Source of the DNA: a virus
Lineage: Duplodnaviria; Heunggongvirae; Uroviricota; Caudoviricetes
Strand: one strand, 5' to 3'
DNA: 8,120 nucleotides
Virus record (IMG/VR): IMGVR_UViG_3300026224_000022
Under the pieces are notes generated by a model that saw nothing but the letters and a program-made list of their open reading frames with translations, did not search any database and was not told where the DNA came from. Of this stretch, positions 2,384-7,661 are shown in pieces. Position numbers and translations under genes: made by a program. How positions within the stretch are numbered: position 1 is the first letter of the stretch; each line of letters opens with the position of its first letter.

Positions 2384-2587
2384 ATGAACCGTTATTTCAC
2401 ATGCTCGTTTTGTGGCGCAAACGAGCTGCAGGCAAAAAAAATCATCGCCAAAGGCGGAAAAGATGAAGTTGCTATCTGCTCTGAGTGCGTAGTCTTGTGT
2501 GTCGGGGCATTAATCAATATCAGCACAACTATTCAGTTCACACCAAATGAGAATGCGCCTTTAGATGCGCGGAAATCTGGAGGTTAA
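2384..2587 (+). CDS. Small protein (67 aa) resembling the ClpX N-terminal C4 zinc-binding domain
   Basis: ATG at 2384 with AGAGAG 5 nt upstream (track start 2366 has no SD). MNRYFTCSFCGANELQAKKIIAKGGKDEVAICSECVVLCVGAL matches the ClpX ZBD pattern as I recall it (CSFCG ... K/R-x-I-A ... IC-x-EC-V-x-LC), with all four Cys present. No AAA+ module follows. Confidence 0.75.
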   Translation: MNRYFTCSFCGANELQAKKIIAKGGKDEVAICSECVVLCVGALINISTTIQFTPNENAPLDARKSGG

Positions 2588-2595
2588 AGAACAAA

Positions 2596-2871
2596 ATGAA
2601 AGTCCAGATTTTAAACAATAGTGGTGAAGTCGTTTGGTCATACGACATAGCCGCTCATGTAGATCAGAGCGGCGATAGCTGGACCAATGGGAAACATCAG
2701 ATTATGGCTGGAGTTGTGTTCTCTTTACGCCGTGCTTTAGAACAGGCTGAAGTCTTTCCATTAGACCCTGAATGGAAATGGCCTTTTTCTATTTGTCCAA
2801 ATTCGGAGAGTACATTTCAGAAAATTGGTCAGAAAGTCGCACTCGAAGAGCATCAGCCAACTGTTTCCTGA
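2596..2871 (+). CDS. Hypothetical protein, 91 aa
   Basis: ATG at 2596, 8 nt after the stop of the upstream gene; GGAGG at 2579..2583 gives a rather long spacing of about 12 nt. Protein-like composition. The 3' 83 nt overlap the convergent minus-strand ORF 2789..3034, so one of the two may be shorter or spurious. Confidence 0.45.
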   Translation: MKVQILNNSGEVVWSYDIAAHVDQSGDSWTNGKHQIMAGVVFSLRRALEQAEVFPLDPEWKWPFSICPNSESTFQKIGQKVALEEHQPTVS

Positions 2872-3034
2872 TTTTTTCAGGTAACTCGTCGGCATCGCAG
2901 AAACAACAACGCTCGATCATGTTGAAAGCCGATTCGTAGAACTGTTTCTGCTGAGTGTCGCTGAGACAGGAAAAGAGCGACGTTACGATGATTTTATTAA
3001 TTGCATTATCAAGTTCTTTTTCATCAAAAGTCAT
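2789..3034 (-). CDS. Hypothetical protein, 80 aa, opposite orientation within the plus-strand operon (moron-like)
   Basis: ATG at 3034..3032 with AAGGAA about 7 nt upstream on the minus strand; stop TAG at 2791..2789. Translation MTFDEKELDNAINKIIVTSLF...CCFCDADELPEKIRKQLADALRVRL... is protein-like. No homolog recognised. Confidence 0.55.
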   Translation of the reverse strand: MTFDEKELDNAINKIIVTSLFSCLSDTQQKQFYESAFNMIERCCFCDADELPEKIRKQLADALRVRLSDQFSEMYSPNLDK

Positions 3035-3129
3035 TTGATTTTCCTTTTATGTATACGGACTTAAAAGGATACCACCGAGCCTGAAGTGGTGAAAAGACAG
3101 GCACATAACAGCTAAGTATTTTCAACCAG

Positions 3130-3450
3130 AGAGAATCCTTAGCGTTGTGGTGAATGCGGCTCAGCGCACGCGGGTTAAGGTTGAGGCTGACAGTCGACCT
3201 TCTGTGGATACCCACCCGCCTGGTGTGCAACCTTCGCCAGGCACCGGGAGGCACCCGGCACCACAACTTTATGCTGTGTGTAGTCCTGGCGGTACCAGCT
3301 TGTACCATTGCTTCCGGCTGGTACCGTCCTTTTTACAAAACAGAGAAGAGCATCACCGGACGACGGGCTCATAACCCAATCCATCCGGGCGGCAGCCACC
3401 GCAGGTGTTCTTCTCTGTTTTGTGGAGAAACCAACCGACCTTGCAGGGTC
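3130..3450 (+). other. GC-rich, hairpin-dense non-coding region (candidate structured RNA or regulatory/terminator cluster)
   Basis: Local GC is much higher than the flanks. ORFs here are Arg/Pro-rich, overlap in all frames and lack SD. Stems: 3218..3225 with 3235..3242 (8 bp); CCGGG/CCCGG 3244..3258; 12-bp stem 3288..3299 with 3317..3328 followed by T5; 13-bp perfect inverted repeat 3337..3349 with 3409..3421. Confidence 0.4.
3288..3334 (+). terminator. Intrinsic-terminator-like hairpin with T-tract
   Basis: GGCGGTACCAGC (3288..3299) pairs with GCTGGTACCGTC (3317..3328), 12 bp with one G-U, 17-nt loop, then C plus TTTTT (3330..3334). Could be a terminator inside the early operon, or the 3' end of a small RNA. 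Confidence 0.5.
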
Positions 3451-3471
3451 GATATGATGAGGAGCAGCAAA

Positions 3472-3834
3472 ATGGCTAGCGAACGCAGTACTGATGTGCA
3501 GGCATTTATCGGGGAGCTGGACGGCGGCGTATTTGAAACCAAAATCGGCGCAGTTCTCAGTGAAGTCGCTTCCGGTGTGATGAACACGAAAACCAAAGGG
3601 AAGGTCTCACTCAACCTGGAAATCGAACCATTTGATGAGAACCGTGTGAAAATCAAACACAAACTCTCATATGTTCGCCCGACTAACCGCGGGAAAATTT
3701 CCGAAGAAGACACCACCGAAACGCCGATGTATGTCAATCGCGGTGGTCGCCTGACTATTCTGCAGGAAGACCAGGGACAATTACTGACTCTTGCCGGTGA
3801 ACCTGACGGAAAACTCCGCGCAGCAGGTCATTAA
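3472..3834 (+). CDS. yfdP: YfdP-like prophage protein, 120 aa
   Basis: ATG at 3472 with GAGGAG (3458..3463) about 8 nt upstream. The track ORF starts at 3154 but its upstream 106 codons run through the GC-rich region and are Arg-rich. The size matches the 120-aa YfdP I recall from K-12 CPS-53, and it sits immediately upstream of a YfdQ-like gene. Confidence 0.75.
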   Translation: MASERSTDVQAFIGELDGGVFETKIGAVLSEVASGVMNTKTKGKVSLNLEIEPFDENRVKIKHKLSYVRPTNRGKISEEDTTETPMYVNRGGRLTILQEDQGQLLTLAGEPDGKLRAAGH

Positions 3835-3899: not shown

Positions 3900-4724
3900 A
3901 TGTCTCAGTACTTAGACGCAACCGCAATTAATCAAATCCAATCCCTTATTTCTGCTCAGGGTGTTAATGAAATTATCAGTAAGATTGGTGCCGATGCTGT
4001 GGCATTGCCTGAGAATTTCCGCATTCATGATCTGGAAAAATTTAATTTAAATCGTTTCCGTTTCCGTGGTTCACTTTCCACTGCCAGCATCGATGACTTT
4101 ACCCGTTATTCTAAAGATCTTGCAGATGAAGGCACCCGCTGCTTTATCGATGCCGATAATATGCGAGCCGTCAGTGTGCTTAACCTGGGTACTATTGATG
4201 AACCAGGTCACGCAGATAACACCGCCACTCTCAAACTGAAAAAGACAGCACCGTTCTCTGCTCTGTTGTCTGTTAATGGCGAGCGTAACTCCCAGAAGTC
4301 ACTGGCAGAATGGATTGAAGACTGGGCCGACTACCTTGTGGGCTTTGATGCTAATGGTGACGCCATTCAGGCAACCAAAGCGGCTGCGGCGATCCGTAAA
4401 ATCACAATTGAAGCGAACCAGACCGCTGATTTTGAAGACAATGACTTCAGCGGCAAACGCTCCCTGATGGAGTCTGTCGAAGCGAAGACCAAAGACATTA
4501 TGCCAGTGGCATTTGAATTTAAATGCGTTCCGTTTGAAGGTCTGAAAGAACGTCCGTTTAAATTACGCCTCAGCATTATCACTGGCGATCGTCCTGTACT
4601 GGTTCTGCGCATTATTCAGCTGGAAGCGGTGCAGGAAGAAATGGCTAACGAATTTCGTGATCTGCTTGTTGAGAAATTCAAAGACAGCAAAGTAGAAACC
4701 TTTATTGGTACTTTCACCGCCTGA
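3900..4724 (+). CDS. yfdQ: YfdQ-like protein, 274 aa (DUF-type prophage protein of unknown function)
   Basis: ATG at 3900 with TGAGGA about 7 nt upstream. Long ORF with good codon usage. Size and position match YfdQ of CPS-53 (recalled, not searched). Confidence 0.85.
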
Positions 4725-4736
4725 TTTCATTACTGC

Positions 4737-4758
4737 AAATGCCCCTGCGGGGGCATTT
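4737..4758 (+). terminator. Hairpin after the yfdQ-like gene (terminator/attenuator candidate)
   Basis: AAATGCCCC (4737..4745) pairs with GGGGCATTT (4750..4758) across a 4-nt loop, 13 nt after the stop codon. The T-run lies within the stem, so this is a weak or bidirectional terminator. Confidence 0.4.
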
Positions 4759-4851
4759 ATGGAAACGTAATTAACTCAATAATCACCGGATGGTGAGGGA
4801 TTCTTTTTAGCAGAATTCAGCGCGGTGCAGCGCATATACGTGGAGAACAAA

Positions 4852-5388
4852 ATGTCATTTATTAAAACTTTTTCCGGGAAGCATTTTTATTATGACAGGA
4901 TAAATAAAGACGACATCGATATTAACGATATCGCGGTTTCCCTTTCAAATATCTGTCGCTTTGCCGGTCATCTTTCGCACTTCTACAGCGTCGCCCAACA
5001 TGCGGTTCTTTGCAGCCAGCTGGTGCCGCAGGAATTTGCTTTTGAAGCGTTAATGCATGATGCAACAGAAGCGTATTGCCAGGACATTCCCGCACCACTG
5101 AAACGCCTTCTTCCTGACTATAAACGGATGGAAGAAAAAATAGACGCCGTAATCCGTGAGAAATACGGGTTACCACCGGTTATGAGTACGCCCGTGAAAT
5201 ATGCCGATCTCATCATGCTGGCAACCGAACGCCGCGATCTCGGGCTTGATGATGGCTCTTTCTGGCCTGTACTGGAAGGTATCCCGGCAACAGAGATGTT
5301 CAACGTGATTCCACTGGCTCCAGGCCATGCCTACGGGATGTTTATGGAACGCTTTAACGAATTATCGGAGTTACGCAAATGCGCATGA
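4852..5388 (+). CDS. yfdR: HD-domain phosphohydrolase, YfdR-like 5'-deoxynucleotidase, 178 aa
   Basis: ATG at 4852 with GGAG (4842..4845) 6 nt upstream; the track start at 4825 is GTG without SD. H...HD signature visible (SVAQHAVL ... ALMHDATEAY). Length 178 aa matches K-12 YfdR, which I recall as a characterised HD-domain 5'-deoxynucleotidase. Confidence 0.85.
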   Translation: MSFIKTFSGKHFYYDRINKDDIDINDIAVSLSNICRFAGHLSHFYSVAQHAVLCSQLVPQEFAFEALMHDATEAYCQDIPAPLKRLLPDYKRMEEKIDAVIREKYGLPPVMSTPVKYADLIMLATERRDLGLDDGSFWPVLEGIPATEMFNVIPLAPGHAYGMFMERFNELSELRKCA

Positions 5389-7158: not shown

Positions 7159-7440
7159 ATGAACACCTTGTTTTTACTGATGGCTGAATTCAATACCCCT
7201 AACATTGAACTCTCAGCAGTTAGCCAAAAGTACTTTGGCATGAGTCCAGCCACGGCAGAAGCAAAAGCAAACGCTTGTAAGTTGCCCGTTCCAACATATC
7301 GCATCGGCACATCACAAAAAGCAAAACGTTGCATCAATATTCAGGATCTTGCGGAATACATAGACAAAAGACGAGAAGAAGGACGTATCGAGTGGGAACA
7401 GGTCAGAACAAGCAAACAGAAGGGCAAAGAACATCACTAA
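7159..7440 (+). CDS. PrtN-family / excisionase-like small DNA-binding protein, 93 aa
   Basis: ATG at 7159 with GGAG (7149..7152) 6 nt upstream; the track start at 7132 is GTG. N-terminus MNTLFLLMAEF... and a basic C-terminal half resemble PrtN-type pyocin activator/excisionase-like proteins (by-eye, from memory). It is the last gene of the plus operon, in the same terminal position torI occupies in KplE1. Confidence 0.7.
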   Translation: MNTLFLLMAEFNTPNIELSAVSQKYFGMSPATAEAKANACKLPVPTYRIGTSQKAKRCINIQDLAEYIDKRREEGRIEWEQVRTSKQKGKEHH

Positions 7441-7446
7441 ATAAAA

Positions 7447-7468
7447 AACCCGCCTAAAGGCGGGTTTT
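7447..7468. terminator. Bidirectional rho-independent terminator
   Basis: AAAAAACCCGCC-TAAA-GGCGGGTTTT: 6-bp GC stem CCCGCC/GGCGGG (7449..7454 with 7459..7464) flanked by an A-run and a T-run. Lies between the convergent stops at 7440 (plus) and 7488 (minus). Confidence 0.75.
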
Positions 7469-7487
7469 CAAAAAGCACCAGCTATGA

Positions 7488-7661
7488 TCATGCTGCTTTG
7501 CGACGACGAAGCTTACCCTGCTGCTCTTTACCAGAGACAGTAGCGTGAGTGAACGCATTAGGAGCAGCCTTCATCAGAACTTCAACAGCAGCACCCATAC
7601 CTGCGAATGCTTTCATTGTGTCGAACTTAACCTGTGGCTTGGTTGCTTTTTGATCTTCCAT
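7488..7661 (-). CDS. Small protein, 57 aa, Ala/Lys-rich (absent from the ORF track, below its length cutoff)
   Basis: Hand translation of the minus strand: ATG at 7661..7659 with AGGAG 6 nt upstream; MEDQKATKPQVKFDTMKAFAGMGAAVEVLMKAAPNAFTHATVSGKEQQGKLRRRKAA; stop TGA at 7490..7488, followed by the bidirectional terminator. Confidence 0.6.
   Translation of the reverse strand: MEDQKATKPQVKFDTMKAFAGMGAAVEVLMKAAPNAFTHATVSGKEQQGKLRRRKAA

Follow-up and report, generated by a model that had tools for sequence, protein, structure and literature searches.

The 8,120-nt stretch of Caudoviricetes DNA analysed here (IMG/VR record IMGVR_UViG_3300026224_000022) is referred to in its full length as the window, and all coordinates are those of the window. 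Between the repressor side of the lambdoid prophage and the gene yfdP it carries an island that the initial annotation drew at 3130-3450. This island is an unannotated variant of known prophage small RNAs (sRNAs), and not a new kind of element. A pseudoknotted core of the STnc100 type is followed by a GU-rich linker, by an intrinsic terminator whose hairpin is, judged from its sequence, homologous to that of DicF, and by a conserved structured leader in front of yfdP.

Over the stretch 3050-3500 the identity is 100% with a prophage in E. coli GPEC1222 and 98% with phage SfV. A match was found in 2865 of 5426 complete E. coli genomes, and most of the sequence in 1821. The initial description of the island as GC-rich was borne out, with 57.3% GC at 3130-3450 against 41.8% at 2500-3100, 46% in yfdP-yfdQ and 46% in the entire window. 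The + strand of 3114-3475 folded to -154.4 kcal/mol, compared with -122.3 +/- 5.8 kcal/mol for dinucleotide shuffles (z = -5.5, 0 of 100 as good), while 3114-3337 alone and the - strand each gave a folding z of -2.9. Together with the lack of a conserved open reading frame (ORF), this upholds the early view of a structured non-coding RNA region. Structure is present within 3130-3450 as first proposed, but the extent was drawn too narrowly, since the structured region reaches from about 3114 to about 3470.

An STnc100-type core with a conserved pseudoknot

The core comprises the following elements.

3143-3270, + strand: STnc100-type five-helix pseudoknotted core (model R1, covariation, pseudoknot)
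3144-3152/3259-3267, + strand: helix P1, GUUGUGGUG / CACCACAAC
J1/2 of the core: AAU
3156-3171, + strand: helix P2
~3170-3174/3215-3219, + strand: helix P3, then a variable insert
3220-3225/3235-3240, + strand: helix P4
3244-3258, + strand: helix P5, CCGGG-AGGCA-CCCGG
3177-3183 (AAGGUUG) with the P4 loop 3228-3234 (CAACCUU), + strand: pseudoknot

The island had initially been said to match no known RNA family. The Rfam model of STnc100 (RF02076) nevertheless aligned over its full length (model positions 1-206 over 3114-3337) with 42.4 bits, slightly below the gathering score of 47, and with E = 9.9e-7 for the window or E = 5.4e-8 over 441 nt. STnc100 goes by the name PasD in enteropathogenic E. 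coli (EPEC) and by EcOnc27/sRNA103 in enterohaemorrhagic E. coli (EHEC). As in the family, P1 closes a multi-helix junction, and the conserved GGUGAAU and CACCGGGAGGCACCCGGCACC are both present. The core 3143-3270 thus belongs to the STnc100/PasD/EcOnc27 family, as a variant subtype at a different site.

A covariance model, R1, was built on 28 diverse IMG/VR members with less than 88% identity to one another, and gave the window 88.1 bits with every helix present. The homolog sets were gathered by exact-motif scans, IMG/VR is redundant, and the E-values of our own models are rough. The 21-mer CACCGGGAGGCACCCGGCACC (3243-3263) occurred in more than 120 IMG/VR stretches among the matches listed.

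The covariance-model scan and comparative alignment that the initial annotation had proposed as a check yielded clear compensatory changes. In the consensus fold of the 28 representatives the outer pairs of P1 covary, P3 consists of 3 bp (GCR/YGC), P4 covaries strongly and P5 is invariant. In a set retrieved by a different motif P5 covaries as well, with CCUGG/CCAGG in Qin and UCGGG/CCCGA in Enterobacter. A fold based on MAFFT showed compensatory changes at 13 of 25 pairs. Among 103 distinct model-aligned sequences, 95.4% of the cells were paired, as against 82.5% after shuffling and 35-56% with slid partners, and two-sided changes were seen at 16 of the 25 pairs. At one P4 position G-U was the commonest pair (63 of 103), which identifies the + strand as the RNA strand. 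The pseudoknot, in which 5-9 nt following the 5' strand of P3 pair with the P4 loop, was found in 28 of 28 representatives with a mean length of 7 bp (shuffled loops: mean 4.3, maximum 4.86), and in phiES15 it is compensated (AAGGCUG / CAGCCUU).

Weak STnc100 and R1 matches elsewhere in the window (4716-4895 and 4728-4837; 19.4 and 11.9 bits) were considered as a second copy of the island and rejected; they correspond to the terminator after yfdQ. Separately, the 3' strand of P1, CACCACAAC (3259-3267), resembles the anti-GcvB motif CACAACA of AgvB (PMC4104026).

Tandem same-strand arrays of 3-5 STnc100-like units were also observed in IMG/VR (L031 1724-2345, L022 371-992, L063 4378-5463 and L013 2322-3352); the units repeat every ~250 nt in L031 and L022, as do the first three of L063. 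Each of the first two units in L031 and L022 carries two intrinsic terminators, and the DNA between units is AT-rich and promoter-like; the last unit of L031 continues into an ORF.

The linker and a DicF-like terminator

Two features follow the core.

3268-3286, + strand: single-stranded GU-rich linker UUUAUGCUGUGUGUAGUCC, predicted unpaired in the minimum free energy (MFE) fold
3287-3334, + strand: intrinsic terminator with DicF-like hairpin, stem 3287-3299/3317-3329, 17-nt loop, U5 at 3330-3334

The terminator had already been recognised as a 12-bp stem followed by T5; in the MFE fold the stem comprises 13 pairs, with T5 at 3330-3334. A simple terminator scan missed the hairpin because its loop exceeds 8 nt. 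Many records match 3287-3500 on its own, from the start of the terminator.

The view that the island is not DicF-like did not stand. Rfam DicF (RF00039) aligned to 3275-3329 of the window with 15.8 bits (E = 0.78), not reaching the gathering score of 48. The copy in e14, 91% identical, scored 28.5 bits (E = 0.02), related loci scored 25.7-30.3 bits, with intermediates at 29-30, and genuine DicF scored 76.7 bits. Alignment A3 of the hairpins shows UGGCGG without variation and a stem preserved with 3 compensatory pairs, and DicF of Qin falls inside the family. The window has the homologous UGGCGG...CCGCC hairpin and U-tract after a single-stranded arm, in a layout that copies the Qin dicF locus. 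On this sequence evidence the terminator hairpin is homologous to the DicF hairpin, in a diverged form.

The linker sits where DicF has its 5' single-stranded arm. The sequence (A/U)UUGCUGUGUGUAGUC is kept before a terminator starting with UGGCGG in e14, ST64B, phiES15, phiNP and several IMG/VR loci, although the domains upstream are unrelated. The linker is thus a candidate sRNA seed and a candidate entry site for RNase E. The window lacks the seed and loop through which DicF pairs with ftsZ, xylR and pykA, its arm and loop being different, and a search of the window for the complement of the linker returned only the linker itself. As a side observation, the linker, UGCUGUGUGUAGUC, appears from its sequence to resemble the GU-rich seeds of the GcvB type.

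Module B and the leader of yfdP

The region between the U-tract and yfdP contains the following elements.

3335-3423, + strand: module B, a conserved three-way junction directly after the U-tract
3335-3357/3404-3423, + strand: basal stem of module B, ~18-25 bp
3356-3388, + strand: arm 1 of module B, with tip GGGCUCAUAACCC at 3365-3377
3389-3402, + strand: arm 2 of module B, a variable hairpin
3424-3432, + strand: conserved motif GGAGAAACC
3436-3451, + strand: small covarying hairpin CGACC-UUGCAG-GGUCG
3459-3464, + strand: Shine-Dalgarno sequence GAGGAG of yfdP

Module B was found in more than 120 IMG/VR copies forming 22 clusters, and in the inspected cluster representatives it follows a terminator U-tract; a detectable core lies nearby in only about one third of the copies. 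Compensatory changes occur at 9 of its 32 pairs, and Rfam contains no match to it. Its most conserved piece, the tip GGGCUCAUAACCC, has exactly the sequence of the anticodon stem-loop encoded by the E. coli tRNA-Met(CAU) gene (4 copies per genome), three G-C pairs included. The annotation of this gene reads only tRNA-Met, and we take it to be the initiator tRNA-fMet. The invariance of the tip is overstated because the copies were retrieved with that motif, and the tip is altered in e14 (GGGUUAAUAACCC) and in ST64B (CUCAUUA loop).

The conserved GGAGAAAC and the small covarying hairpin come after module B and are followed by the Shine-Dalgarno sequence. Motif and hairpin are found again in ST64B, L047, L087 and the clusters of module B, where the hairpin differs in sequence, and matches in some records stop at 3437-3440 or 3461. 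The suggestion of a leader of the yfdP operon is therefore sustained for 3335-3470, a conserved structured leader. Module B itself is a candidate RNase III site or leader element. Its position parallels that of the long P1 helix after DicF in Qin, so that cleavage by RNase III splitting an sRNA from the mRNA may reasonably be proposed.

An interchangeable slot upstream of the terminator

Among 130 loci with terminator and module B, 101 have an upstream insert bounded by GTTGTG...C[AG]CAAC, and at 70% identity at least 10 types can be distinguished among these inserts.

STnc100-like type: 35 loci
Qin type: 23 loci
mEp460 type: 15 loci
Other inserts: a 135-nt phiNP type, a 58-nt hairpin, and others including tRNA-like RNAs

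What stays constant is the stem GUUGUGG/CCACAAC, the seed and the hairpin, while the domain within the stem swaps. This interchangeability speaks for a generic role, for instance in processing or stabilisation, rather than for a specific aptamer. The tRNA-like inserts, with an insertion of ~65 nt, were seen in L235 (1077-1203, - strand), L214 (1800-1925, + strand) and L226 (4364-4488, - strand), scoring 43.9, 40.0 and 29.5 bits, respectively, on the Rfam tRNA model (gathering score 29). That model matched only inserts of other phages and nothing in the window, and ARAGORN called no tRNA in 9 related loci or in the one that is identical to the window. Several loci have T-arm-like hairpins (GUCCG-UUCGAUU-CGGAC) upstream.

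The island as protein gene or DNA site

PGAP annotates 3147-3457 as a 'frameshifted hypothetical protein', and the 91%-identical stretch in e14 is annotated as YmfH of 103 aa. In addition, an ORF of 226 codons (3154-3834) is open across the entire island, sharing the frame of yfdP. A protein-coding gene, small or decayed, would explain these calls; that the island might be a gene remnant had been raised by the initial annotation itself. The substitutions, however, are spread evenly over the three codon positions (14/14/10 against e14, 22/22/21 against ST64B), indels of 1, 2, 19 and 25 nt separate the island homologs, and the open frame is not the same across the window, e14, ST64B, phiES15 and mEp460. 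No ORF of the island matched Pfam or NCBIfam, the SfV and ST64B records have no coding sequence annotated at the island, and the strong RNA covariation accounts for the conservation. The extension of the yfdP frame is not conserved in ST64B, e14 or phiES15, and we regard it as a chance product. With neither a conserved frame nor a codon-position bias for ymfH, we reject the protein hypothesis and find a coding origin scarcely credible; the initial statement that there is no credible ORF was accurate. An element acting as DNA, for recombination or replication, had also been suggested, and a recombination joint of phage mosaicism is a related possibility. Many BLAST matches start at 3287 or stop at 3437-3440 or 3461, all of them module borders, and a constant inverted repeat, GTTGTGG...CCACAAC, surrounds the interchangeable inserts. 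Such breakpoints are, on the other hand, the expected product of homologous recombination at conserved RNA modules. The helices are kept through G-U pairs (such as that at the P4 position mentioned above), which are C-A on the opposite strand, and both the U-tract and the quality of the fold point to the + strand. No recombinase or replication gene stands consistently next to the element. We consider a DNA-level function very improbable.

Genomic setting and expression of the e14 copy

The window starts with cro-side genes on the - strand, followed by the gene of a LexA-like repressor, ymfK/cI, on the + strand. The features around the island are the following.

2253-2281, + strand: promoter-like site TTGCCA-17-TAGATT, found by promoter scan directly after the LexA-like repressor gene
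2366-2587, + strand: ClpX-type zinc-finger protein
2596-2871, + strand: ORF of a 91-aa protein, annotated by PGAP and in the SfV record
2789-3034, - strand: 80-aa ORF, the 'convergent' gene of the initial annotation
3066-3111, + strand: conserved upstream block with hairpin ACCACCGAGCCUGAAGUGGU (hairpin 3071-3090)
3094-3122, + strand: weak candidate promoter AAGACA-17-TATTTT, read from sequence, start near 3129, 8 of 12 positions matching
3114-3142, + strand: 5' leader, aligning with the 5' end of the Rfam STnc100 model
3472-3834, + strand: yfdP, downstream of the island, ATG at 3472
3900-4724: yfdQ, after yfdP

In SfV the run from the island through yfdP and yfdQ extends on to xis-int. The two small + strand ORFs between repressor and island are those at 2366-2587 and 2596-2871. 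The latter overlaps the - strand ORF 2789-3034, which has the better ribosome-binding site; the homologs of the pair are all near-identical and thus do not allow the coding strand to be decided.

Operator-like AACTAAG repeats flank the promoter-like site 2253-2281. The 9-10-mers at 2224 and 2261 are common to the cI-cro intergenic region, at 1483 and 1533, and the AACTAAG-type repeats at 1483-1545 and 2224-2281 include the near-palindrome ACTAAGATTACTTAGT. These two groups are probably the operators OR and OL of this immunity type. The site 2253-2281 is, from its sequence and position, likely a PL-type early-left promoter feeding the island, which would place the island about 850 nt inside the early-left operon. 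The candidate promoter at 3094-3122 was not detected by the promoter scan, and neither the scan nor inspection by eye revealed a convincing promoter between the terminator and yfdP.

Several Klebsiella phages that have nothing else of the island carry the block 3066-3111 at ~95% identity; e14 has it too, and a variant of it occurs in phiES15 and the IMG/VR loci L047/L104. Read on the - strand, the block resembles a weak terminator.

The position of the island, from the repressor side to the first early-left gene, is the same in SfV, ST64B, phiES15 (before kil) and mEp460 (as a divergent variant). The cores of e14 and Qin, preceding xisE and dicB, respectively, likewise lie between the repressor side and the first early-left gene. 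No N gene is annotated in the retrieved stretches of the SfV, ST64B, phiES15, mEp460, e14 and Qin records.

Expression data are available for the e14 copy. Its 'ymfH' is induced by AZT in a way that depends on cleavage of LexA, together with xisE and intE (PMC11228462). This response to DNA damage argues that the RNA is made on induction and that the terminator is passed by part of the transcription. The copy is a member of the YmfT i-modulon; it lacks a constitutive promoter, and Reg-seq detected next to no promoter activity belonging to it (PMC12132413). Overexpression of a ymfH clone triggers the toxin RcaT of retron-Sen2 (bioRxiv 10.1101/2020.06.22.160242), and as ymfH is probably not a protein (e14 copy, L002 3075-3390), the trigger could be RNA.

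Two further observations concern other parts of these genomes. The window has a strong hairpin, AAAACCCGCCUUUAGGCGGGUUUU, at 7436-7508 with A-runs and U-runs on either side, which suggests a possibly bidirectional terminator; its several Rfam matches, all weak, were to families that contain terminators (rnk leader, RNAI, P9, sroH). In ST64B and mEp460 (L125 409-597 and L126 323-511, both - strand) matches to C4 antisense RNA and isrK exceeded the Rfam gathering scores; they sit on the cro side, near an antirepressor-type regulator gene, and the window has no such match.

Proposed mode of action and alternative readings

We regard it as moderately probable that the island yields a DicF-type, probably Hfq-dependent sRNA with a new seed, generated by termination and processing of the early-left transcript, that the terminator gates the delayed genes and that a structured leader follows. 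Among the possibilities named by the initial annotation, the one we prefer is a small RNA with its end at 3334, given the terminator with U5 at 3330-3334 and the relationship to STnc100 and DicF. The island would then be an RNA-gene and leader segment of an early-left operon running from the repressor side through yfdP and yfdQ to xis-int, a counterpart of the Qin dicF locus. Transcription would come mainly from the PL-type promoter by the LexA-like repressor gene, once the repressor is inactivated. The polymerase would pass the GUUGUGG/CCACAAC stem that closes the STnc100-type domain, the GU-rich stretch AUGCUGUGUGUAGUC and the DicF-homologous terminator with U5. Stopping at 3334 would give an sRNA of about 190-205 nt, and a cut by RNase E just 3' of the structured domain would leave a short form of ~65 nt, by analogy with the 190-nt and 53-nt forms of DicF. 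The short form would combine a DicF-like Hfq-binding 3' module with a different seed and should therefore regulate other mRNAs in trans. The terminator would split the operon into an immediate part (the two small ORFs) and a delayed part (yfdP...xis-int). Read-through transcripts would include module B, whose long basal helix right after the U-tract is the likely RNase III site freeing the sRNA from the yfdP mRNA. What the analysis establishes is how the island is structured, conserved and covarying, to which families it is related, where it lies in the genome and that it does not code; where the transcripts end, how RNase E and RNase III cut, that Hfq binds, and which seed and targets are involved are what we infer from this arrangement.

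Several points weigh against this proposal. Both Rfam matches lie under their gathering scores (42.4 < 47 for STnc100; 15.8 < 48 for DicF), and the DicF link of this exact sequence depends on intermediates. The alignment of the 103 core sequences was fitted to the model, and pattern-based retrieval partly accounts for how invariant the 21-mer and the module B tip look. Hfq-dependent sRNAs typically have a longer U-tract than the five U seen here. Against the translation-initiation region of ftsZ, a crude duplex test that ignores intramolecular structure gave energies not surpassing those of shuffles (z = +0.3; DicF: -1.6). A base-pairing sRNA needs no such strongly conserved pseudoknotted core. 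In Qin, Enterobacter and L133, moreover, the core lies directly in a 5' untranslated region (UTR) with no terminator, which suggests a role in cis or in protein binding.

The last two points lead to a reading in which an aptamer-like or RNA-polymerase-binding core, riboswitch-like or put-like, decides in cis, as an attenuator or antiterminator, between a stop at 3334 and read-through into the delayed-early genes of a phage lacking N, the short RNA being a by-product. The core is of riboswitch grade, with its five helices, its pseudoknot and its near-invariant junction and loop bases, and it stands directly upstream of a terminator in the early-left operon, in several phages without an annotated N. 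The 5' UTR cores lie ~25 nt from a Shine-Dalgarno sequence, the P4 3' strand CGCCAGG is, as read from the sequence, complementary to CCUGGCG at the terminator foot, and in e14 the genes downstream of the copy, xisE and intE, show strong induction in spite of the terminator (PMC11228462). That alternative pairing is nevertheless lost in phiES15 and partial in ST64B, and P1 of the Qin version is a static helix of 18 bp. The tandem arrays bear on the question from both sides, for a series of core and terminator ending at an ORF resembles tandem riboswitches, whereas AT-rich promoter-like spacers and two terminators on each of the first two units are sRNA-gene-like. The RpoD ChIP-exo signal at Salmonella STnc100 promoters (PMC10794520) also speaks against control in cis. 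A requirement for a specific aptamer is unlikely in a slot that takes at least 10 unrelated inserts, tRNA-like ones included, before the same seed and terminator; nor is there homology to put, a 70-nt two-hairpin RNA, or a copy in the early-right operon of the window. On balance we consider control in cis unlikely. Binding of core and module B to translation or tRNA-processing proteins or to tRNA-targeting defence nucleases, rather than to mRNAs, seems to us improbable. It would account for the identity of the tip GGGCUCAUAACCC to the anticodon stem-loop of tRNA-Met(CAU), for the slot inserts that pass the Rfam tRNA gathering score, for the upstream T-arm-like hairpins and for P5, which in the structure as read is stacked on the P1 3' strand like a T-arm on an acceptor stem. 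Against it stand the absence of ARAGORN calls in these loci, the motif retrieval that inflates the conservation of a tip altered in e14 and ST64B, and a gene neighbourhood that indicates no protein partner. The activation of a retron toxin by the e14 'ymfH' clone (bioRxiv 10.1101/2020.06.22.160242) would fit, but that result came from an ORF clone and was not attributed to RNA. A wider reading, which we hold to be rather unlikely, treats the island as one case of a widespread, undescribed modular RNA system of enterobacterial lambdoid early-left operons. Its stem would present interchangeable RNA domains (STnc100-type pseudoknot, tRNA-like RNAs and others) and its module B would display an exact copy of the initiator-tRNA anticodon arm. 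Far from being passive sRNA scaffolds, the modules would bind cellular machinery and thereby gate delayed-early gene expression or counter host defence, with RNA polymerase, 30S with IF3, MetRS, RNase P and tRNA-fMet-cleaving defence toxins as candidate partners.

Significance

The island is present in more than half of the complete E. coli genomes and yet is annotated as a pseudogene or as 'YmfH', so its recognition corrects the annotation. With it, DicF-type sRNAs reach beyond cryptic prophages to phages whose genome records are complete (SfV, ST64B, mEp460 and phiNP, among others), and the sRNA reading predicts a family with a common 3' module and differing seeds, made at prophage induction. 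STnc100 proves to have a conserved pseudoknotted fold, and its placement in 5' UTRs is not explained by base pairing alone. A strong terminator at this position should part the immediate from the delayed early-left genes in N-less phages. Module B is a new conserved leader RNA, absent from Rfam, with a copy of the presumed initiator-tRNA anticodon arm.

Comparison with known RNA systems

The putL/putR RNAs of HK022 are, like the island, structured RNAs just past the early promoter region of an N-less lambdoid phage and upstream of a terminator. They differ in having ~70 nt and two stem-loops and in occurring in both early operons (PMC9378689), while the island is a single site with five helices and a pseudoknot. 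Homology to put was rejected, with no match of model R1 and no common motif in the HK022 genome, and with one copy only in the window. Rfam gave no riboswitch match in the window; conservation of an aptamer-like kind is present, and phiES15 does not keep the alternative pairing with the terminator foot. To tRNA-fMet the likeness consists in the module B tip GGGCUCAUAACCC, corresponding to the anticodon stem-loop, and in the tRNA-like slot inserts of sister loci, but the tip has no D-arm or T-arm context and no ARAGORN call.

The anti-sRNAs AgvB and AsxR of EHEC prophages are 51-60 nt long, with a conserved 3' hairpin and a variable specificity arm of 14-18 nt (PMC4104026). The predicted short form of the island RNA would have the same design. 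There is no sequence similarity, however, and AgvB and AsxR are primary transcripts at the moron site after PR', not embedded in an early-left operon.

With STnc100/PasD/EcOnc27 the island shares the 206-nt model in full length, the helices P1-P5, the near-invariant GGUGAAU and CACCGGGAGGCACCCGGCACC, and a 3' terminator. It differs in P2 and P3, which are of a variant type (GCGGCUCAGCGCACGCGGG), in its score under the gathering threshold, and in its 3' tail, which is DicF-like where the commonest STnc100-type variant of IMG/VR has the terminator GCCCCUCUCCGGAGGGGC. It also differs in its early-left site, the described copies being located behind Q and stx2, in the late or moron region (PMC12370729, PMC4104026; bioRxiv 10.64898/2026.05.13.724894). 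Relatives are known as prophage sRNAs that are expressed and that Hfq binds: 11 copies are transcribed in EDL933, one of them confirmed by Northern blot (PMC5331693), EcOnc27/sRNA103 is bound by Hfq (PMC12711010, PMC4104026), PasD was found through RIL-seq (bioRxiv 10.64898/2026.05.13.724894), and STnc100 is among the most abundant annotated 'sRNAs' (PMC9029176).

The closest parallel in layout is dicBF of Qin. DicF is cut from the polycistronic dicBF transcript through termination, RNase E and RNase III. It occurs in forms of 53, 72 and 190 nt, RNase E making the 5' end of the 53-nt form and RNase III that of the 190-nt form, and an early study ascribed the 3' end of the 72-nt form to RNase III as well (PMC5069750; bioRxiv 10.1101/2023.04.14.536235). 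A BLAST search of phage databases in 2016 gave no match to DicF (PMC5069750). Upstream of DicF (76.7 bits) the Qin-like locus has a structured domain of 115 nt that is closed by GGUUGUGG...GCUGCAAC, and counting 190 nt back from the 3' end of DicF leads to the base of this constant stem; the equivalent form in the window would be ~3141-3334. After DicF, the dicF-dicB spacer holds an unannotated STnc100-like core (L131 7500-7880), whose 18-bp P1 starts 5 nt past the DicF U-tract and which ends ~25 nt before dicB.

The differences lie in the parts. The single-stranded arm is unrelated (AUGCUGUGUGUAGUCC in place of UUUUCUGGUGACGUU) and the loop differs too, so that targeting of ftsZ, xylR and pykA cannot be assumed. 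The upstream domain of the window is of the STnc100 type and not of the Qin type, the downstream helix is module B and not a core, and the gene that follows is yfdP instead of dicB. Both loci nonetheless sit inside the operon that leaves the repressor gene, which in the window is probably a repressor-controlled early-left operon, with long helices at the expected places. Both have a GUUGUGG-type stem around a structured domain, a single-stranded arm, a UGGCGG...CCGCC hairpin with U5 and then a long helix. The window thus contains the same building blocks as Qin, arranged as domain, seed, terminator and long helix.

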